IMG/VR virus record: IMGVR_UViG_3300008255_000286
Span: 1 to 34,879 of that record
Source: a virus
Lineage: Duplodnaviria > Caudoviricetes
DNA: 34,879 nucleotides
Direction: 5' to 3' (one strand)
Below the pieces are notes generated by a model that did not search any database, was not told the DNA's origin, and saw nothing but the letters and a program-made list of their open reading frames with translations. Made by a program: the position numbers and the translations under genes. Shown in pieces: positions 214-34,006 of this stretch; position 1 is the stretch's first letter, and every line of letters starts with the position of its first letter.

Positions 214-390
214 TCAGTCTAATTTTTTATTTGGATCGAATCTCTCTTTCCACAACTTTTTAAGATGTGTTATTCCAAATTGGCGTGGGAATGCAAACAT
301 GAACCGCTTTCCGCTAGCAGCAGCATCAAGCACTTTCTTCTGTGCTTCACTTAAACCAGTTGTAGTAGTCGAGTTGTTCTTGTCCTTCAT
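214..390 (-). CDS. Small hypothetical protein (58 aa, MKDKNNS...)
   Basis: Distal part of ORF 214..534. ATG at 390 minimises the overlap with the Fic gene and the stop abuts the recA start. Confidence 0.45.
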
Positions 391-847
391 GAATAATGTG
401 GATAGGAAGGCCCAGACGAATTCTGTGCCAATTGTAAATAATACGACCTGTTCGACCATTCCCATCCTCGAATGGATGGATTGTTTCGAATAACACGTGA
501 GCATCTTTGCATGCTGTTTCTCTCTCTGAGTCATCGAGTCTGAATGAACTCATTAGCATATCGACGACATCTTGCAATTGCGTTTCTAGCAGCTCTACGC
601 TTCTGAATCTTCGAAGGTGTCCGCCAATCCACACGTCGCATGTTCGTATTTTTCCAGCGATGTCTGGACGAAGTCGTTTCATGAGATGCTCATGCACTGC
701 TAGAATATCTTTGAATGTCAGCAAGTCTACTGACATCACACGAGCCCATGCGTCATGTGCATCTTCTAATGCTGCCTCAGAGTACTCACGCTCAATTGCG
801 TTAGATTCCCTGAGAAATTCTTTGACTTCATTTGCTGTCGGATTCAT
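347..847 (-). CDS. Fic/Doc-family protein (AMPylase-like)
   Basis: Canonical Fic motif HPFEDGNGRTGR and N-terminal ESNAIE. Confidence 0.92.
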   Translation of the reverse strand: MNPTANEVKEFLRESNAIEREYSEAALEDAHDAWARVMSVDLLTFKDILAVHEHLMKRLRPDIAGKIRTCDVWIGGHLRRFRSVELLETQLQDVVDMLMSSFRLDDSERETACKDAHVLFETIHPFEDGNGRTGRIIYNWHRIRLGLPIHIIHEGQEQLDYYNWFK

Positions 848-7715: not shown

Positions 7716-8819
7716 TCATTGCTTCTTTGCTTCTTCGAATAATGATTTCTGCTTCGGTTTCTTTTTCTCTTCTCGTTCTGCAGCCTTGCGAACGCGCTCT
7801 TCTTCTCGTTGCTTCTTTGCTTCTTCTCTAGCTGCTTTCTTTTGAAGTCTTTCTTCTTCTCTTGCTTTCTTCGCTTCTTCTCTTTCTATTTTTCGCTGAG
7901 CTCTTGCTTCAACTTCTTTTTCTCGTTCGATGCGACGAATTTCTTTTTCTTCCGCTCTTTTCAGTTTCTCCTGTTCAGCCAACGAGTAGCTAGCCCATTC
8001 TTTTGAGTGTTCTGGCCAGATTGTCTGTAGAATTCTCATGATGGGGGCGTAGATTTGAGTATCCCAATAATATCGTCTGTCCCACGTACCGTCATAATCA
8101 TCGACATGCACAGCAGTCTGTTTTGGAACTGAAGCAGAGATGATGTAATCTATTCTAGTCCCCCAAGCATCTGCTTCTTCGCTCGGCTGTAGAATCAATC
8201 CCTTCTCGACCATTTGCTCAGCTAAGATAACGTGGGCAGATTTTGAAGCATATTTGTATGTCGGCTTCGACAACCTAGTACTGATGATGAGGTCTTCTTT
8301 TGAAACAGAAGTTTTCTCATCAAAAACTGTCTCTCTTAATTTGTTGAGCCATTCTACTATATGGTCTTTCCCCTTGTCTTCGTATGTGACCATCTTGGAC
8401 AAGTCTCTCATAGCTCTCTTTGTGATGCCAATTGTGTTTTTCTTTGCGTCTTCCAAGCCTTTGGAGAAAATCATGTCCGTCTTCTGACCATTCAACCACA
8501 TCATCGTTCCAGTGTATCGTTTCTTGTCGACCATAATCATCTTCCTGTACGCTTTCTCGTATTCTAGATGCACGATGTTTGTCGTCAGATGAAACTTCTC
8601 ATTCAGGAATTTGACTAATTTAGGATTCACAATGTCGTCGTTCAGCTTGTCGATGTCTTCATGAGTGCCGGGTAGCGGCACAAAAATGCTATCAGTATTG
8701 TGAACGATGATGTCATTTGCTAAAAATGCTTGAGTGCTGGGCACTTCAAAATCATACACGTATTGACCAGTATTCTGTATCTTTCTGATGCTAACAATTT
8801 TTTCTCTTTTTAATGACAT
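7716..8819 (-). CDS. polB: Family B DNA polymerase, C-terminal subunit, preceded by a split-intein C fragment
   Basis: First 41 aa end VYDFEV..FLANDIIVHN, followed by TDSIFV (second half of motif C), KKRY and KGLE. Confidence 0.9.
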   Translation of the reverse strand: MSLKREKIVSIRKIQNTGQYVYDFEVPSTQAFLANDIIVHNTDSIFVPLPGTHEDIDKLNDDIVNPKLVKFLNEKFHLTTNIVHLEYEKAYRKMIMVDKKRYTGTMMWLNGQKTDMIFSKGLEDAKKNTIGITKRAMRDLSKMVTYEDKGKDHIVEWLNKLRETVFDEKTSVSKEDLIISTRLSKPTYKYASKSAHVILAEQMVEKGLILQPSEEADAWGTRIDYIISASVPKQTAVHVDDYDGTWDRRYYWDTQIYAPIMRILQTIWPEHSKEWASYSLAEQEKLKRAEEKEIRRIEREKEVEARAQRKIEREEAKKAREEERLQKKAAREEAKKQREEERVRKAAEREEKKKPKQKSLFEEAKKQ

Positions 8820-9718
8820 ATCTTTTGCAATTTTTTAATGACATTGTCTATATCTGTGTAGATTTCATGTTCAGTGAAACGTAGCACCGTCCATCCACGC
8901 TTCTTGAGCAATGCATTCTGTCTAGCGTCTACTTCTAAATTATGCAATTGCGTAGTATTCAGTTTTTTCATAGCTTTTCCTGCGACTGGATGCCAATACT
9001 CACCATCACAAAAGATAGCAATTTTTTTGTCTAGTATGATAAAGTCGGGTGTGCAATATCGCTCAATACTGTGTTGTCGCATATAATGTATTTTTGTTTT
9101 TTTCAGAGCTGCTTCGAAGTAACGCTCGAGTGCGGTTTCTTTTTTTCCGAATTTTTGTTTCAATCGGGTTACTCTAACTTTTTGACGTGACTCTTCTACA
9201 TTGTAGTACTCTCTCAATCCCACTGCAGCCATGTTAGCACGAGTCGCTACTCTAGCATCTGAATTTTTAGTTAATCCAGTACACCAGGGTTTACTATTTT
9301 TCTTAAATGCAGTAGATGGTGTTGTTTTCTTACGTTTTGTTTTACAATACAATAAATCAGTTTTCATATTTATCATTGCCGGCTGTACGACTATGTTCTT
9401 TCCGTTGCGATTCACGATCATTGAATGGTCTTTTGTGACTACTACTTTTTTGCCCGACTCAGTAGTAATCTCGTATAGCTCTTTTGTAGTCCAATGACGA
9501 ATCATTTTACTAACGTGCTGTTTCTTTTCTATATTTCTATCTGTGAGCACTGCTTTTTTAGATAGCATCGAATACGTTTGAGCATGCGGCATGTGTATAT
9601 CAAAATCAACAATATCTTTAGTGCCTCTTTTCACAGCTCTCACTTCAAATTTTTTCCAAAGTTCGTCGAATGTTAAAAGTCTATCGTTAAATCTAATTTT
9701 TGTAGAGCCCACTACGCT
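8697..9718 (-). mobile_element. Naturally split intein in PolB motif C (Int-N + Vsr-like nuclease 9718-8810; Int-C 8819-8697)
   Basis: YGD|SVVGST...VTKDHS (blocks A/B), then PDFII..CDGEYWH..GWTVLRF and a stop; the next ORF supplies blocks F/G ..VHN|TDS. Confidence 0.88.
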
Positions 9719-12700
9719 ATCGCCATAAATTACTTTTTGAGAACTCACTTTTTCAAAGATGCTCGACACCGCTTTGTTCAAAAATTGTCCAGTTATCGTG
9801 ATTGACTCTGCTACGTTTTTGTCGAAGTATCTAGATGTTCTGTCGCCCGTTATCCCGTACATGCTGTTGTGGCTGAGAGTGCATCCGATAAAAAAATTAT
9901 GATTTTTTTCAACTTCGATATCATACACATCTCCAGAATATTCGAAGTTGCCTATATTGCGAATAGAGTCTAGCGTGTATGCTTTGTCTGATGAGTACGT
10001 CATGATACTAGAAGCAACATTCAAATTCATCAACATTCGATATGACACGTTGCAATTGTCATTAGCCGGGGGTGCTGTTGTGATCTCGACGGGTCGTTCA
10101 TAAACGTATCTTAAAAGATCAGAGATCTGATACACTAACTGTTTTGATACAGTCGTGCATCTGATATAGTTATCTCTGTGTTTTGAGTTTCCGTCACCGT
10201 CTGCATAGCCCTTTATAAAGCTAGCAATTTCTTTTTTAGATTGAGAAAAAATCCAACGTGGGACACTCTTTGTCGTAGCATTGAATTCAGTTTGTGAAGT
10301 ATAGCACTCTTTTGAGAAAAACTCCCCAATCAATGCATTTAAGATAGCACACCCGACTGCATTATTTTTGATTCTCGTTTCATGTAAGCCTACTTCAACA
10401 AATGTTCTTTTAACTCTATCAGTATAGTGTGTGTTCGTGTTTGACACGACAATACCACCAGTTGTCTGTCCCTTCGAGTTCTTTTTTATTCCGCCGCTGC
10501 CCTCTGCTACATACATGCCAAACACCCATAATAGATTATCTGTTATTCGCCATGCTAGCGGAACTCTATGCCCGTTATCACTCAAACTAATGCGAAGTTC
10601 ATACTCGATGACTTCTTCAAGAGTCAATGCTTTTACCGCATCCCACAGTTTGTCATCCAGCTCAATCATGTGGTGATACCTGTTATTTGACTGTTTACTT
10701 TGTTTGTGTCTATTGACGTATCTTGACTGCACAAGTTCATTAAATGCAGCACTGGATGTTTGTACGAGATCTTGATTGCGATATTTTTTTTGTGCGCATG
10801 ACAGATGCAGCATAGGTGTCGATACAGATTTTAATACTGAATAGTCGTGCTTACGCAAATCTAAGTATTCTGCTTGTGCTTGAGTGTACGTAGTAGATGC
10901 AAGATTGACTAGCAGATCGAATTGTTGTAAGTCGCAAGCAGTCTTTTTTCGTAATTCAAGAATACTCAATTGTGTTAATTGCATATGAGAATTTGATAAG
11001 ATGCTCTTTTGATTTCGATTCTTTCTGTATGCGGGATTCACAAATGACGTAGCAAACAAACGATGTTCAGGTGTGCATAAAATCTGTAACGAATGCGCAG
11101 GCTTAATTGCTATTAAATGCTGAGACGATGTCTTCCAGATTTTGCTAATGCGCTGCCACTCGACAGCGTCGTTCTTAAAATTATACGACTGTATCTCGTA
11201 TTGTTTATTTGAATCGTGAATTTCTTTAACTGACATAGCACGGTAGATGTCTGCATCGACATCATGCACGTACAGTGTCGTGCTCGGATGTAAACAATTT
11301 GCTAACTCTTTCACGATTGCTTGAGAAGAACGAGTACTCCCGTACTCTGGAGACCCCGGCTTCAGACCCTCTAACTTCTTCTTCATCTCACCACGCAACT
11401 CAAGCAATTCTTCGACTAAGCTGGAGATGAATGAATCTACAGCTGTCCTGAAGAAGTTATTGTTAGCAGTCTGCCAACACTCATTCTTCGGGTCTATTCT
11501 TTTCTTTTGCTTCATAAGGAAATTGTACCACTCGTTGAAGTCGACGTCTTCTATCTTTCTGTCAGGGTCTGTAAGGAACTTTCTGAATTCAACATCTCCC
11601 AACTTTGATTTTTCACGGTCCATCGAGTCAGGACCGATATTCCAACTCACAATCATTGATGGATACAGCGACTTGAAGTCGAAGATTCGAACATCTGTGT
11701 AGAGTCCAGTTATCGGTGGCTTCACGTACCCGCCTATGATATGCACAACTTTGTTAGCTTCTGCTTCTTCGTACGTGGGTCGTGAATAGAGATATTGCTT
11801 GAGGTCTTTCGACTTTCTAAGCATGTAGTTGTCAAGAAGTTCTCCTACGTAGAATCTGTCGAGAGTTGTTCCAGTCCACTTGCATTCGTTTATCATCAGC
11901 TGGATGATGCCGAGCTTCGCATCTAGCTTCATGAGAAGTTCAGAGTCTTTGCGGTTGTATTTTTCCAACAACTCTCTGTTGTTATCATACATCTCTTTGA
12001 TTCCCTCTTCGTGCTTCACTTTCTCTTCACCCAAGAAGACTCTAGCGACCTCGTTGAGTGCGAAACCCGTCAATCCGATTTTGTCCATCTCGTATGTGTA
12101 GAGCTTGATACAGCGTTTCATCAAATCGAGATGAATTCGTCTTCTCCAGTCGTACTTCAATCCGTACTTCTCCATTCTGCTCTGGATATACGGGAGGTCG
12201 AATTTCTGTGAGTTCCAACCGACGAAAATGTCGTGTTTGTCTATCAATCGAATCAGCCGTTGAAGCAATGCTTTTTCATCTTCTACGTCGTAATACCAGC
12301 TCTTTCCGCGGTTGTTGTATGCTGCCCATGAGAGGATTCGGTCTCTCCCAATCTTTATTCCTGCTCCGCTGGAGTCGTCAGTTTCGATGTCGAAATAGAG
12401 AATGTTCAAATCTTCTGCTATGGGCACCTTGTTGTCAACAAGATAACGTTTCGTTCGTGAGAGGTCTGACTCGTACGTGACGACACCGAGTTTTTTCAGA
12501 CCACATACAATTTTAGACACTAACGGATTCTTCGACGTGTATTTACAATAGATGAGAGTGTAGTCGCCTTTCTCAACGAACTTTTCTATCGTGCCAGCAT
12601 TCACAGATTTTCCGAACCTCTTCTCTCCTCCCAACTTGTTGAAGTCCACCGTCTTGACTGTAAAATACCAGGGCTTGTCTTTCAGACGTCGTTCAAGAGT

Positions 12701-12790
12701 CTCATGTCCCTTCTTCAGGATTAGCACGATATCAGACCAGTCGTCCCAGCCAGTTAGCACTTTGTATTTTGTGTCAGTGTCTTTTGCCAT
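8810..12790 (-). CDS. polB: Family B DNA polymerase, N-terminal subunit (3'-5' exonuclease + palm) with a cis intein and a split-intein N fragment
   Basis: Motifs FDIET, GWNSQKFD, YNRKD, DFKSLYPS, KELAN|SMYG and YGD|. Confidence 0.93.
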   Translation of the reverse strand: MAKDTDTKYKVLTGWDDWSDIVLILKKGHETLERRLKDKPWYFTVKTVDFNKLGGEKRFGKSVNAGTIEKFVEKGDYTLIYCKYTSKNPLVSKIVCGLKKLGVVTYESDLSRTKRYLVDNKVPIAEDLNILYFDIETDDSSGAGIKIGRDRILSWAAYNNRGKSWYYDVEDEKALLQRLIRLIDKHDIFVGWNSQKFDLPYIQSRMEKYGLKYDWRRRIHLDLMKRCIKLYTYEMDKIGLTGFALNEVARVFLGEEKVKHEEGIKEMYDNNRELLEKYNRKDSELLMKLDAKLGIIQLMINECKWTGTTLDRFYVGELLDNYMLRKSKDLKQYLYSRPTYEEAEANKVVHIIGGYVKPPITGLYTDVRIFDFKSLYPSMIVSWNIGPDSMDREKSKLGDVEFRKFLTDPDRKIEDVDFNEWYNFLMKQKKRIDPKNECWQTANNNFFRTAVDSFISSLVEELLELRGEMKKKLEGLKPGSPEYGSTRSSQAIVKELANCLHPSTTLYVHDVDADIYRAMSVKEIHDSNKQYEIQSYNFKNDAVEWQRISKIWKTSSQHLIAIKPAHSLQILCTPEHRLFATSFVNPAYRKNRNQKSILSNSHMQLTQLSILELRKKTACDLQQFDLLVNLASTTYTQAQAEYLDLRKHDYSVLKSVSTPMLHLSCAQKKYRNQDLVQTSSAAFNELVQSRYVNRHKQSKQSNNRYHHMIELDDKLWDAVKALTLEEVIEYELRISLSDNGHRVPLAWRITDNLLWVFGMYVAEGSGGIKKNSKGQTTGGIVVSNTNTHYTDRVKRTFVEVGLHETRIKNNAVGCAILNALIGEFFSKECYTSQTEFNATTKSVPRWIFSQSKKEIASFIKGYADGDGNSKHRDNYIRCTTVSKQLVYQISDLLRYVYERPVEITTAPPANDNCNVSYRMLMNLNVASSIMTYSSDKAYTLDSIRNIGNFEYSGDVYDIEVEKNHNFFIGCTLSHNSMYGITGDRTSRYFDKNVAESITITGQFLNKAVSSIFEKVSSQKVIYGDSVVGSTKIRFNDRLLTFDELWKKFEVRAVKRGTKDIVDFDIHMPHAQTYSMLSKKAVLTDRNIEKKQHVSKMIRHWTTKELYEITTESGKKVVVTKDHSMIVNRNGKNIVVQPAMINMKTDLLYCKTKRKKTTPSTAFKKNSKPWCTGLTKNSDARVATRANMAAVGLREYYNVEESRQKVRVTRLKQKFGKKETALERYFEAALKKTKIHYMRQHSIERYCTPDFIILDKKIAIFCDGEYWHPVAGKAMKKLNTTQLHNLEVDARQNALLKKRGWTVLRFTEHEIYTDIDNVIKKLQKICH
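9866..11296 (-). mobile_element. Cis intein (477 aa) with LAGLIDADG endonuclease in PolB motif B
   Basis: Starts CLHPST after KELAN and ends HNFFIGCTLSHN before SMYG; internal GMYVAEGS and GYADGDG. Confidence 0.9.
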
Positions 12791-23544: not shown

Positions 23545-26049
23545 ATGAGTGATGATCTAATTGCTCCCTTTTCGACTGAAGAAATCAAAACGATTACACG
23601 AGCGTCAGGTGACTTCGTGTATTTTGTGAATGCTATTTTTTCGAAGAGCTCTAGACATTTTATAGCTGGCGAGCACGTCGACAACACCGCTAGACTGCTG
23701 GGTTCGAATAAACGGACAATGAGAGTCTCAGCACGTAATCATTTCAAGAGCTACTCTTTCTATGCACACATCATGTGGAAGATTATGTTCGAGCTTCCGC
23801 AGAAAAACGTCGAAGCCCACTACTTCTCTTTCAGCCAGGACTTGGCTGGCTATCATGTCGGAAAAATAAAGCAAGCGGTCGCATCAAACCCGTATTTCAG
23901 ACATCTTCGAGATAGAAAACCAACTGCTGAATCAGTCATAAAATACACATGGGACGATGTCACGCATTATTCTCTGGAGCCTCACGGCCTTGTGCAGTTC
24001 AAACGAGGTATTCACTGTGATTATGTATATGTAGACGACCCGTTCCAAGACCCAGAAAATCAATTGAATCCGACAATCATTAAGAAAATCAATGAGATTT
24101 TTAAGTCGAACATTCTTGACATGCCGAATGAACCTGACGGCGAATTGCATTGTGCAGGTACGCCGCAGACAGATGAAGACTTCTATTTCAACAAAGACGT
24201 TACTCGACGATTTTCAGTACGTATTCTTCCAGCTATCTCTGATGACGGCAAAGCACTATGGCCCGAATGGATGGACCTCCCAGAACTCGAACAAAAACGA
24301 ATTGAGCGAACAGACCGCATTTTCAGACGAGAGTATCTCTGTACTCCAGTTTATTCTACTGAAGGCTTCTTCACGAGAGAGTATCTGACTAGAAAAGTAG
24401 TCAATCACGACCTCGTCCCTCATAAAGCAAGTCTCAAATACGCAAAGCAGGGGGAAGTTATCGCTGGATTCGACATCGGAAAGAAATCTCACCCTTCGCA
24501 CTTGACAGTGCTAGAGCACAGGCCGAATCAGAAGCTCGTTATGATTCACCAGAAGTGGATGGACGGCTGGTCTTACTCAAACGGAAAAGACTTCTTGGAA
24601 TTCGCTCCCACTCAGCTGGAGTATCTAAAGAAAGTAATAAACAACTTTGGCATCGATCGTCTCTATTACGACAACACACGAGGTGAATTCGAGTCATTCG
24701 ACGAGCAAGGTCTGCTTCCAAGACAGATGATTCCAATCGTGTTCAACCAAAAGTTGAAACAGACGATGGCTACTGCATTCGACAAAGTCGTTGAACGATC
24801 TCAAATAGAAATCATCAACGACGATCGTCTGCTGACTCAAATTTGTGCAGTCACAAATTCCCTAGAAGCTATTCAGTCTTCTAAGGGTCATGGTGACTGT
24901 TATGACGATCAAACAGAAGTACTGACAAGAGTAGGCTGGAAACTTTTCAAAGATGTGCTATATACTGATGAGATAGCTACGCTAAAAGAAGATCGTTTCA
25001 TTGAATATCAGAAACCCACCAACATTATCAACAAACAGTACTCTGGAAAGATGTATAAAATTGCAACAACTCAAGTTGATCTCGTTGTTACTCCGTTGCA
25101 TAAAATGTATGTTAGCGATGGATATGAAAAACCATATTTGTTGAAACAGCCACACGAGATCGAAGGGAAAATTATTTCATACAAGAAGAATGCAGAATGG
25201 CTTGGACGGGAAAAAGATGTTTTTGAATTCTATGAACATCATATCCCAATGGACATCTTTCTTGAATTTATTGGATACTATGTATCAGAAGGATTCACTT
25301 TGAAAGGAAAGTATATCTGTATTTCACAAAAGCAGGGAGCGAAAGCAGATCGAATGTTTTCTTCATTACGACAGTTGCCTTTCAACGTCAAACAAGCACA
25401 CAAAAATAATTATGATGGCAGCACATATTTCTTTTCTGCAAAATTATCTAGATGGTGCGATGAAAATCTTGGGCATGGGTCATCGAATAAAAAACTGCCA
25501 GAGTGGGTATTTGCGCTGTCAAGCAGACAATTGACTATTCTGCACGATGCATTAGTGTTAGGTGACGGCTCTAGAAAACAGTTAAAGAATGGTCAAACGC
25601 AGACGAGCTATAGCACAACTTCAAAATTGTTAGCAGACCAAGTCCAACGCTTGTGTTTTTTAAGAGGGCTCAGTGCGAATGTATATTGGTCTGATGACAA
25701 TATCGGTAGACCCGCACCAAATGGATTTGGGCGACATCGAACATACGCGATAATGACTATTGCTCAGAAAAATAGACCCGCTGTCAACAAAAAACGAAAA
25801 TCAGATTACTGGATAGATTACTCGGGTTCTATTCATTGTGTCACCGTGCCCAATCATATCATCTATGTCAGAAGAAATGGAAAACCCGTTTGGAGTGGGA
25901 ATTCGTTCTGGTCTGTGTGTCTTGCACTGTTGGGCATTGCAGAACTTACGAACTACGTGGAAGAGGGGACTGCGACTAATCGAAAGAGAATACGAGCAGG
26001 CGGAAAATCTATTTTTTCGGATGATTCTCCAATTCCGTCCGGATATTAA
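23545..26049 (+). CDS. terL: Terminase large subunit (intein-containing)
   Basis: Walker A variant ARNHFKS, RGIHCDYVYVDDP, AGTP, LWPE, FRREY, AGFDIG and HGD|SFWS. Confidence 0.88.
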   Translation: MSDDLIAPFSTEEIKTITRASGDFVYFVNAIFSKSSRHFIAGEHVDNTARLLGSNKRTMRVSARNHFKSYSFYAHIMWKIMFELPQKNVEAHYFSFSQDLAGYHVGKIKQAVASNPYFRHLRDRKPTAESVIKYTWDDVTHYSLEPHGLVQFKRGIHCDYVYVDDPFQDPENQLNPTIIKKINEIFKSNILDMPNEPDGELHCAGTPQTDEDFYFNKDVTRRFSVRILPAISDDGKALWPEWMDLPELEQKRIERTDRIFRREYLCTPVYSTEGFFTREYLTRKVVNHDLVPHKASLKYAKQGEVIAGFDIGKKSHPSHLTVLEHRPNQKLVMIHQKWMDGWSYSNGKDFLEFAPTQLEYLKKVINNFGIDRLYYDNTRGEFESFDEQGLLPRQMIPIVFNQKLKQTMATAFDKVVERSQIEIINDDRLLTQICAVTNSLEAIQSSKGHGDCYDDQTEVLTRVGWKLFKDVLYTDEIATLKEDRFIEYQKPTNIINKQYSGKMYKIATTQVDLVVTPLHKMYVSDGYEKPYLLKQPHEIEGKIISYKKNAEWLGREKDVFEFYEHHIPMDIFLEFIGYYVSEGFTLKGKYICISQKQGAKADRMFSSLRQLPFNVKQAHKNNYDGSTYFFSAKLSRWCDENLGHGSSNKKLPEWVFALSSRQLTILHDALVLGDGSRKQLKNGQTQTSYSTTSKLLADQVQRLCFLRGLSANVYWSDDNIGRPAPNGFGRHRTYAIMTIAQKNRPAVNKKRKSDYWIDYSGSIHCVTVPNHIIYVRRNGKPVWSGNSFWSVCLALLGIAELTNYVEEGTATNRKRIRAGGKSIFSDDSPIPSGY
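24898..25902 (+). mobile_element. Intein (335 aa) with LAGLIDADG endonuclease in the TerL nuclease domain
   Basis: CYDDQTEVLT..GW, VTPLHKM, GYYVSEG, LVLGDG, HCVTVPNH..WSGN|S. Confidence 0.9.
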
Positions 26050-29792: not shown

Positions 29793-29927
29793 TCACTTTC
29801 TAACTCTTTTCTCCATTCTTCTGAGTTCATCATGTTCTCGTAAAATGCGGACATTCTCATTTTCAGGGTACGTCTGTTCTGAGATGAGTCCTTTTTCGAT
29901 GTAGGGTTTAATCTTGTCGTATTTCAT
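29793..29927 (-). pseudogene. Possible N-terminal remnant of an Rnl1-type RNA ligase
   Basis: MKYDKIKPYIEKGLISEQTYPENENVRI resembles, from memory, the N-termini of phage Rnl1-like ligases; it ends after 44 aa. Confidence 0.3.
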
Positions 29928-30345
29928 CGTAACAATAAATTCCGTTGATATGGTCGATTTCGTGCTGGAACATAAATGAGGGATTGCTTGACAACGTGAC
30001 TGTTTCTCTCTCCGTTAATTCACCGTCTTCAATCGTCTGACACTTGACGTCGATCTTGTGTCTCCGCTGCTTTTTGATTCCAGTTCTGTCTGGGAATGTC
30101 ATACAACCCTCTCCACAGTCTACCCAGTAGTTAGTGAATCTAGTGATGACTGGGTTGACAACGATGTCCCAGTCTGCTGTCAAAAAGAAAGCAAGAGGGT
30201 CGTTGTCGTCTACTTGCGAGTGAGCAAGCGCTAGAGTATCTTTCGTGAAGAGCTTCTTCATTTCTTCCACGTCTGCTAGAACTCTGCTGACATCTGCATC
30301 TGTGACGGGTCGACTTTTCAGTCTGTGCTCCTTGACTATTTCCAT
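29908..30345 (-). CDS. def: Peptide deformylase
   Basis: EGCMT and FQHEIDHING; motif 1 is degenerate (LALAHSQ). Confidence 0.85.
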   Translation of the reverse strand: MEIVKEHRLKSRPVTDADVSRVLADVEEMKKLFTKDTLALAHSQVDDNDPLAFFLTADWDIVVNPVITRFTNYWVDCGEGCMTFPDRTGIKKQRRHKIDVKCQTIEDGELTERETVTLSSNPSFMFQHEIDHINGIYCYDEIRQD

Positions 30346-31966: not shown

Positions 31967-32407
31967 TTATTTAGTCTTACGACGAGTGGGTGGCTTCTTC
32001 TCTGTGTCAGTCAATTTGTCGTTCAGTATCTGTCGCTCTGGCACTGAGAAGAGACTGAGATTTTCGTGGAAGAGGTCTACGTTTTTCTCATCTACTATTC
32101 TTTGCATCAATTGATTTTTGTCCATCGAGACTTCTCCAGGGAGAATCTCAAGTGACGATGCTTCGTTGATGAGTTCGTCGACAGGTTTGAAAGCGTACTT
32201 TCTCAAATGCCATGCCGATATCTCCACCTGTCTCTTCGTCGGGTCCTTCAGGAGAGCCCTACTGGCCTCTTGGAGAGCTTCTTCGAGAGAGTATGCCATG
32301 CCCAAATGCAGATACGCCATGACTCCGCAATCCAATTCGATTGCATACACCTTCGGCTTCACTATCCGCTTCTTTATTGTCGAGACTAATTTTTGTAATG
32401 TTGTCAT
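31967..32407 (-). CDS. Hypothetical protein
   Basis: 146 aa; TGaTAGAAT box 6 nt upstream of the ATG. Confidence 0.65.
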   Translation of the reverse strand: MTTLQKLVSTIKKRIVKPKVYAIELDCGVMAYLHLGMAYSLEEALQEASRALLKDPTKRQVEISAWHLRKYAFKPVDELINEASSLEILPGEVSMDKNQLMQRIVDEKNVDLFHENLSLFSVPERQILNDKLTDTEKKPPTRRKTK

Positions 32408-32468
32408 GTGTCTATTCTATCATTTTTGACAATGGGCGATACTTTGATACTACCAATCGACCGTTAGC

Positions 32469-33090
32469 AAGTGGGTTATGTCCACTATTCTGCCCGAAGG
32501 CAGAAGACTGTACACAACTGCTCTTCTCTTTTATTCTCACTTCTAGACGTCGCAGCACTTCTCGTCACGAAAGTATGCTAAGCTGTCTGGTGAGTTTCGC
32601 TCACCCCTCTGCTCGAAAGCAGAGGGCTATTCGAAACTCAGCGTAGGTTGGCTTTTCTTTTCTCAACCTGGCGTATCTCTACCACGCGCAACTTAACCGT
32701 TTTGGTGAGTTCTGCTCACCTCTCTAGCCGAAGCCAGAGAGCTATTCAGAACATTTCTTCATTTCGCGCGGCGTAGCGATTCGTAGCTTTTCTTCGCTAA
32801 ACAGGATTGGTGAGTTCTGCCCACCCTTCTAGCCGAAGCCAGAAGGCTACTCAGAACTCTACGACTCTCCACAAAACGTCGATGTACCGCTACGTTGCAA
32901 GTCTACTCTAAACTCATTAGTGGGTTTTGCCCACTCCTCTGGCCGAAGCTAGAAGACTGATCGAAACGCCACGAAACTTCTGTTCACGTCTTCACTCGAT
33001 ACTAGTCTACTCGCCATTCTACGTCAGTAGGCAGTCTTGGTGAACTATACTGTCCACCAGTTTGCTCCCTCTCTCGAAGGAGCAACGTTG
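32469..33090 (-). ncRNA. Putative guide-RNA array (VIPR-like): five units of pentamer tract + double hairpin, plus a leader hairpin unit
   Basis: Conserved hairpin cores begin at 32469, 32588, 32703, 32808, 32918 and 33038. The tracts between them have C at position 2 in 65 of 74 plus-strand pentamers (my count). UUCG loops and G-U pairs indicate minus-strand RNA. Confidence 0.85.
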
Positions 33091-33097
33091 GTAGGCA

Positions 33098-33376
33098 CTA
33101 TGGCCTGCTGGCTTTCCTTATCTTCTTTTGTACCGCTTCTTTGAGCAAGCGCTGAGTGTTCCTATACCCGAACATTCGTACTGCGCTGAGCTTCGTTTTT
33201 GCGGTGTTGATGTGAAGGTTCCCGAAGCCGATAACTAATCGTTGCTTCTTGATGTCTTCTTCTGTGTAGGGCTCTTTCTTCAACGACTCCGCTCTATTGA
33301 TTGAAGCGTCGAAGAGTCCATTTGTGCGTCCTACGTCCATCACTGCGTCTACATCTGAGATACTTTTTTCGCTCAT
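33098..33376 (-). CDS. Hypothetical 92-aa protein between the RAMP-like gene and the array
   Basis: Starts 4 nt after the RAMP-like gene's stop; its own stop is directly followed by the array. Confidence 0.65.
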   Translation of the reverse strand: MSEKSISDVDAVMDVGRTNGLFDASINRAESLKKEPYTEEDIKKQRLVIGFGNLHINTAKTKLSAVRMFGYRNTQRLLKEAVQKKIRKASRP

Positions 33377-33380
33377 AATG

Positions 33381-33929
33381 TTATTTTACATCTGTGAACT
33401 CTACTAATTCGAATCGACCGAATCGAGGCCTGTATGACCCGATACCTTTGTGCAATCCAGCATACTCAATGATTTGTTTTATCACATCCAAGTCTGCTCT
33501 GTCGTCCAGAACATCCATGTTGAATGATAAACTCCACTCGTTGAGTCTTGGTCTATAGCACATCATTCTTCCACGAGTAGAAGGATTGACTGCTGCTCTA
33601 GCATCTACAATCCATTCTTGATTTTCGTGAGTAAGATACTCTTCGTCTATAAAGCAAGCGCTTTGAACGATTTCTTTATATGACTTCTTACCCGACCCAG
33701 CCAATTTGAACTCAGTGGCTGACTTTGCGAATGCCATCTCAAGATGTATTGAAGGTTGCTTGAGAACGCCTTTTTCGTCCGTATACAAGTATTGGCTCGC
33801 AATCTCTCTTTGCGCTTCAGGAGTCTGCGCTTTATCACCAGCCCGCTTGTTCGTCTTCAAAAGTTTCTCTTCGCTAAACTTATGCATCAGGAGAGGAGCA
33901 ATTCCTCTAATCTTTACATGTACTTTCAT
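33381..33929 (-). CDS. Stand-alone minimal RAMP/Cas7-like RNA-binding protein (Vipr-like)
   Basis: N-terminal beta1 VKIRGIAPLLMH, QPSIHL helix cap, RPR..W.LSF strand, and C-terminal Gly-rich loop AGLHKGIGSYRPRFGRFEL; adjacent to the array. Confidence 0.75.
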   Translation of the reverse strand: MKVHVKIRGIAPLLMHKFSEEKLLKTNKRAGDKAQTPEAQREIASQYLYTDEKGVLKQPSIHLEMAFAKSATEFKLAGSGKKSYKEIVQSACFIDEEYLTHENQEWIVDARAAVNPSTRGRMMCYRPRLNEWSLSFNMDVLDDRADLDVIKQIIEYAGLHKGIGSYRPRFGRFELVEFTDVK

Positions 33930-33977: not shown

Positions 33978-34006
33978 ATTATACCATATCCTTCCACATT
34001 TGTAAA
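33978..34006 (-). promoter_or_regulatory. Sigma70-type promoter for the RAMP-like operon
   Basis: TTTACA-N17-TATAAT (TGgTATAAT), 48 nt upstream of the ATG at 33929. Confidence 0.75.

Follow-up and report, generated by a model that had tools for sequence, protein, structure and literature searches.

A groundwater phage VIPR locus with loosely kept linkers, one guide of which matches the Walker B codons of a P-loop ATPase

Near one end of a phage genome fragment lie runs of variable dinucleotides spaced by three bases. A preliminary description, made from the sequence alone, decoded three of them into protein-like strings by taking each pair as the first two positions of a codon and skipping the wobble base. 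Two of these strings resembled a Walker B motif, and the runs were proposed to be guides directed at conserved ATPase or helicase genes of other elements. What kind of system makes such guides, and does any of them find a target of this sort? The stretch of DNA that we analysed as a whole, hereafter the window, is the 34,879 nucleotides of the virus record IMGVR_UViG_3300008255_000286, a linear record, 46% complete, that carries phage replication and terminase genes. There is hardly any doubt about the first answer: the locus is a VIPR system, an RNA-guided DNA-binding protein with five guide units, in a groundwater phage. As to the second, the fifth guide finds a match in an ATPase gene, on the codons for its Walker B motif, and this gene is probably bound and silenced by the complex of Vipr and RNA.

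Layout, protein and RNA of the locus

The array lies on the minus strand (32470-33035) and comprises five units, each starting with successive pentamers, in which two variable bases precede a three-base linker, and ending in a 49-nt tail (Table 1). A G that recurs with period 5 (in at least 8 of 10 units) marks 35 scanning frames, all on the minus strand with starts between 32548 and 33012, and none elsewhere in the 34,879 bases. With 11-14 units in each guide and a G in the middle of 44 of the 52 linkers, as counted over the four in-phase tracts, the array belongs to the NNNNG repeat class. The published description of a VIPR array is 9-16 pentamer repeats with GGY/NN or a related consensus, NNNGG, YNNNG or NNNNG (Yoon et al., 10.64898/2026.04.26.720920; this and the other VIPR papers cited here were available in part, and what is said of them refers to those parts). 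In guide 2 a single extra base shifts the phase of the pentamers. Sequencing run X1 covers the array without differences, and no guide variants were found in the sequencing runs compared with the window.

Table 1. Features of the VIPR locus, with their positions in the window
Feature	Position	Strand	Remarks
Putative sigma70-like promoter, extended -10	33978..34006	-	upstream of vipr; 11/12 consensus bases, TG present
vipr gene, 182 aa, RAMP-fold protein	33381..33929	-	profile match to SUSP1 Vipr and structure model
92-aa ORF, candidate accessory (vap) gene	33098..33376	-	between vipr and array; by position only
Leader, UUCG hairpin and GGUG..UCACC hairpin	33039..33085	-	fold of the region
Unit 1, vrRNA-like	32919..33035	-	14-unit guide 33035-32966, tail 32967-32919
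Unit 2	32809..32916	-	about 12 units, 1-nt phase shift near 32881, tail 32857-32809
Unit 3	32704..32805	-	11-unit guide 32805-32751, tail 32752-32704
Unit 4	32589..32700	-	13-unit guide 32700-32636, tail 32637-32589
Unit 5	32470..32586	-	14-unit guide 32586-32517, tail 32518-32470; matches ATPase Walker B codons in L192/L193

The five tails share a UUCG hairpin and a 3' hairpin, the loop of the latter pairing with the 5' end of the tail. Of the 95 cells 95.8% are paired; in 8 of the 19 pairs both partners have changed, and the covariation extends over all three helices. None of 500 shuffles did as well and slid controls reached 40-45%, the control being lenient since the structure was drawn from the same five paralogues on which it was tested. 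The tail pattern has no exact match in viral_contigs, and Rfam gave no match. The pair of hairpins in the leader precedes guide 1 and resembles, as read from the sequence, a tail devoid of its guide. It may define the 5' terminus of the first RNA.

The 182-aa Vipr ORF has no Pfam match. A profile of this protein and 37 relatives matches the Vipr of SUSP1 (36pp_D) with E=1.7e-33 over profile positions 1-179 of 183, the two proteins being 24% identical. Its structure model (pLDDT 90) retrieves, with Foldseek, subunits of type III and VII CRISPR complexes, and the protein displays the features of a RAMP homologue: an RRM core, a thumb and a G-loop, which reads GIGSYRPRFGRF. The neighbouring 92-aa ORF has neither Pfam nor PHROG match, and its atlas matches all stay below 0.9. 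A Pfam scan of 30 window ORFs revealed no cas gene, only a weak Cas4-like match inside a PD-(D/E)XK nuclease, and no CRISPR-like array was found in the window. Like the VIPR systems of SUSP1 and of P. fulva (type II), the locus combines a small RAMP protein, a neighbouring small ORF and a downstream array of units of about 100 nt, with pentamer repeats, a pseudoknotted 3' tail, a 1-nt wobble skip in the match of guide 5, and no self-target (none for any guide in the window, the best score being 18/28). It is this agreement of layout, protein and RNA architecture that leads to the VIPR assignment.

Linker composition and the G-loop of Vipr

Where the locus departs from SUSP1 is in its linkers. 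The array of SUSP1 uses GGY, whereas the linker here is HGH: among the 52 linkers the first base is A, C, T or G in 27, 16, 5 and 4 cases respectively, the second is G in 44 and another base in 8, and the third is T, A or C in 21, 17 and 14. The canonical GGY, found in just 3 of the 52, is thus not the rule of this array. Non-canonical arrays, such as WGT/NN, TGH/NN and others, have been listed in a language-model survey (10.64898/2026.10.21.760802), and the present array resembles them in its period of 5 and in its non-GGY linkers next to a Vipr fold. Those linkers are, however, fixed or degenerate at one position, while here only the middle G is kept.

In SUSP1 the first linker G (G1) is recognized by His17 and Asp177 (structure paper, 10.64898/2026.04.26.720927; PDB 36pp). 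Asp177 aligns with Ser165 of the present Vipr, the G-loop having Ser165/Tyr166 where that of SUSP1 has Asp177/Trp178, and the site is Ser or Ala in all 20 closest proteins. Does the residue at this site follow the linker? For 77 of 82 VIPR loci there were enough repeat units for a comparison, and their Vipr proteins, grouped at 60% identity, form 16 clusters. Mean G1 retention was 0.87 in the 11 clusters with Asp or Glu versus 0.46 in the 5 with Ser or Thr (p=0.003), the clusters not being phylogenetically independent and the acidic versus Ser/Thr grouping having been picked after a per-locus comparison of Asp with all other residues had failed to reach significance (p=0.11). It failed because Glu behaves like Asp. 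Across the 16 clusters, then, the state of the residue, acidic or Ser/Thr, tracks G1 retention, with two loci as exceptions, L010 (Ser, 0.75) and L049 (Thr, 0.87). Asp177 of SUSP1 and Ser165 here illustrate a residue state that tracks the linker, and this matters for the reprogramming of these small RNA-guided repressors. In the lineage of the present phage, the linker would have relaxed from GGY to HGH together with the loss of the G1-reading Asp.

The same looseness could mean that the array has decayed, its linkers having lost selection rather than followed an altered specificity of Vipr. The rarity of GGY and the eight linkers without a middle G would fit such a history, as would the phase shift in guide 2 and the lack of a target for four of the five guides. 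Yet vipr is intact, with Ser or Ala conserved at the G-loop site of its closest proteins, compensatory changes occur in all three tail helices, and the first linker base is biased towards A or C (43 of 52) instead of being random. We consider decay most improbable.

Two other linker patterns deserve a mention. Locus L013 (3486-4148) has a near-fixed AGT linker, 57 of its 61 units starting the linker with A, and the Vipr next to it carries Ser at the G-loop site. Loci L015, L073, L074 and L078 belong to a Vipr cluster with a G-loop Thr and mixed GGY, TGY and AGY linkers (G1 0.43-0.54).

Guide 5 and the Walker B codons of an ATPase family

The dinucleotide strings of the preliminary description are exact in order and phase: 14 units from 33035, 11 from 32805 and 14 from 32586, all on the minus strand. 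These three tracts are real guides, their ends having been placed about 10 nt too far, inside the tails (at 32956, 32741 and 32507, for guides that end at 32966, 32751 and 32517), and two further tracts lie in the same range, 32916-32856, with its 1-nt phase shift, and 32700-32636. The gapped code, two bases read out of three with a skip on the wobble, was rightly recognized, yet it is already in print for VIPR: Yoon et al. (10.64898/2026.04.26.720920) describe the skip of 1 nt and its bias towards the wobble base, the reasoning on synonymous escape, the pseudoknotted tail and the NNNNG variants. Target searches are reported, in the available parts of the VIPR papers, for types II, III and V only. 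The core of the skipping code is not new here.

Is the decoding truly protein-like? With codon-position dinucleotide frequencies taken from 22 window ORFs and six phases compared, guides 1, 3 and 5 are best read as 'sense, third base skipped' (log2 odds +3.6, +2.5 and +4.0); the score is neutral for guide 2 (+0.2) and speaks against this reading for guide 4 (-4.5), which is not wobble-phased. When the dinucleotides of a guide are put in random order, the run hhh-GA-GA, which evokes a Walker B, turns up in 6% of the shuffles for guide 1 and in 2% for guide 5, so that this look is by itself weak evidence and a search for targets was needed.

Scanned with 11 units of guide 5, metagenome_contigs yielded two loci, L192 and L193, which are identical across a 232-nt overlap and count as one sequence. 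The match comprises 11 contiguous dinucleotides, in frame and with the skip on the wobble base, and amounts to 23/28 nucleotides (82%) or 11/14 dinucleotides (79%). The site codes for TLILDEADLRD, with the Walker B TLILDEAD, and a Walker A, GDTGSGKS, lies about 35 residues upstream. In a comparison with other gap sizes and with shuffles, made on a limited set of loci, the one-base skip scores 23/28 on L193 and other skips at most 19/28; against the match it counts that in the family loci without L192 and L193 the best guide-5 score, 21/28, equals the shuffle maximum. Chance would produce a match of this kind 0.02-0.03 times per 596 Gb, a rough figure drawn from counts of 1/874 and 2/1027, which would allow up to about 0.1.

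These counts are very small, and the metagenome collection comes with no stated size in bases. This lends some weight to another reading, in which the VIPR locus is real while the match between guide 5 and L193 is due to chance or is a near-miss, the true target being another gene or a sibling element absent from the collections. Three of the 14 units fail on L193, all of them tail-proximal (units 12-14, 1/6 nt), which makes the match borderline with respect to the published 80% cut-off; assembly and engagement are reported to start at the tail end (10.64898/2026.04.26.720927). Seeds of 8 and 9 units also yield many unrelated matches. Against this reading, array and target co-occur in run X5, where L193 is found in three contigs with no difference, one of them spanning the target site, and where a 174-nt contig of depth 2 is identical to window positions 32373-32546, a stretch that takes in the 3' portion of guide 5 together with the tail. 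The comparison took in four runs that contain the phage, with the window and the L193 contigs only; the target was seen in this one and not in X1, X2 or X3, X1 being the best phage-containing run. Co-occurrence in X5 is the most independent evidence for the guide-5 target. The match falls, moreover, on a motif that had been named beforehand, and unit 13 fits the ATPase family. A chance match or near-miss seems unlikely, and there is good reason to believe that guide 5 is aimed at this family of primase-linked ATPases.

What family is it? L192 and L193 are short, and the type of element has to be taken from relatives, which would make the protein a primase-linked P-loop ATPase of mobile elements. 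It has 1425 relatives, and 12,090 cluster representatives at E<=0.001. The ATPase part of the family (P0039-P0272) has no sequence match in Pfam, PHROG or PDB, its atlas neighbours have DUF3631 in 10-100% of their members, and the target ATPase has one phage record and no plasmid record. Relatives sit in integrative and phage contexts: of 24 viral loci 8 were inspected (33 of 89 ORFs scanned), and 6 of these have a primase fused to the ATPase or next to it, while 5 have an integrase or recombinase in the vicinity. The family is very large, and often fused to primase domains that differ from one member to another.

The acidic set of the Walker B, D/E, E and D, is present in all 207 family members in which the motif was located (in 27 of 234 it was not). 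The Walker B also ranks first among guide-5 sites in 19 of the 20 viral loci where it was located (3 of them tied; 4 of 24 not located), a count that is partly circular, the family having been chosen through the guide-5 match. Unit 13, which is not part of the seed, agrees with D/E in 73% of the 207 members versus a background of 15%. Units 12 and 14 fit 1% and 4% of them, the residues being Ser in 191/207 and Glu in 172/207 respectively, and no member of the 207 exceeds 11/14 with guide 5. We infer that only two bases would separate the guide from a member with the consensus end Ser(AGY)-Asp-Glu. The family is thus the likely target, and L193 itself may be bound.

The failing end of the guide might be accommodated otherwise, if guide 5 had been made against the L193 element and had since dropped three units from its interior, between two GA units, leaving a 9-nt bulge in the target or a decayed guide. 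A gap of three codons does raise the match to 27/28 on L193, and the Asp that would then be read, found in 10% of the family, is present in L193. This fit is post hoc, other gaps reaching 26/28; it needs a guide of 17 units, above the published 9-16, and no tolerance of bulges is reported in the available parts of the VIPR papers. Loss of units appears quite unlikely to us, and a guide aimed at the family at large remains the preferred reading.

If SUSP1 may serve as a model, the five units would be transcribed and cut into RNAs of about 110 nt, on which Vipr would polymerise, one subunit per pentamer, gripping the 3-nt linkers. The NN pairs would then be shown to double-stranded DNA with a 1-nt skip, in a triplex, and binding of the Vipr-RNA complex would repress transcription of the target gene. 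Silencing of the ATPase may stop the replication of a satellite or prophage that competes in the same host. With the skip on the wobble base, and with catalytic residues specified by the bases that are read, a target would escape only through a damaging amino-acid change. There is a precedent: the vrRNA4 guide of SUSP1 lies on active-site codons of the recombinase of the F5 satellite (Lopez et al., 10.64898/2026.10.15.759431). As in that pair, a wobble-aligned guide would here sit on catalytic codons of an essential enzyme of a mobile element; unlike in that pair, the proposed target is the Walker B of a replication-type P-loop ATPase. Active-site aiming, described there for a recombinase, would thus extend to the motor motif of an ATPase, and the pair is a candidate natural guide-target for VIPR with the loosest linker class. 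In the parts that were available, the word 'Walker' is absent from the text and supplement of Yoon et al. and from the text of Lopez et al., while the target tables (Data S3) could list a Walker B target; 'primase', 'helicase' and 'ATPase' do not occur in the available text of Lopez et al. (10.64898/2026.10.15.759431). A literature search on Vipr and Walker B gave nothing relevant among the matches listed, and none for noncontiguous VIPR in groundwater.

The most far-reaching reading brings linkers and target together. A groundwater Vipr clade would have dropped the recognition of linker G1 through a single change of the G-loop Asp to Ser or Ala, would read a near-free xGx, and would lock onto the invariant Walker B codons of a very large primase-ATPase family, one guide covering many competing elements. 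We put this forward tentatively, as possible rather than probable. If it is true, linker specificity would hinge on the G-loop residue as on a simple switch.

The other guides and further features of the window

That the Walker B of another element's ATPase is the target was supported for guide 5, by its in-frame metagenome match, and found no support for guide 1: an 8-unit seed of the latter gave 92 matches in viral contigs, and reading their translations placed none of the 92 on a Walker B. It would be very surprising if guide 1 were aimed at such a motif. The wider proposal, guides aimed at ATPase or helicase genes, accordingly holds for one guide in five, no target having been found for guides 1-4. 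Guide 3 gave 18 matches, the best of them 18/22, with no credible target. Compared with 26 target-family loci and 81 VIPR loci, which for guide 2 was the sole comparison, guides 1-4 score within the range of shuffles, and there is thus no sign of targeting of vipr or vrRNA genes. Since the seeds demanded exact matches, these searches would have overlooked targets that differ from a guide within its seed. The other four guides are likely aimed at other genes or at non-coding sites.

Several candidates were set aside. The best match of guide 1, 24/28, lies in a frame that looks non-coding; its recurrent match families resemble what we take to be capsid, portal and prohead-protease genes. Among 33 matches of guide 4 the best, 23/26 in two loci, is antisense, presumably to a ubiquitin-conjugating-like stretch, and was taken as chance. 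In viral_contigs guide 5 had no match with 11 units, and with 9 units two near-identical matches in a non-ATPase protein, without extension. Its 9-unit seed found 17 matches in genome_contigs, none above 22/28 and two of them on Walker B motifs.

Several features of the window beyond the array may be of use to those who study this phage. The extended -10 motif TGGTATAAT occurs in 6 copies, all on the minus strand, where 0.14 would be expected; they stand at window positions 1432, 17338, 27096, 29652, 30563 and 33978, all on the coding strand, and are likely the phage's own sigma70-type promoters. A family B DNA polymerase occupies two ORFs, which also hold intein, LAGLIDADG and DUF559/Vsr-like domains (7716-12790, minus strand). 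The terminase large subunit (23545-26049, plus strand) has an inserted region with a weak LAGLIDADG match, possibly an intein. Finally, the phage encodes a peptide deformylase and a Fic-domain protein (29908-30345 and 347-847, minus strand), and the deformylase suggests a bacterial host.
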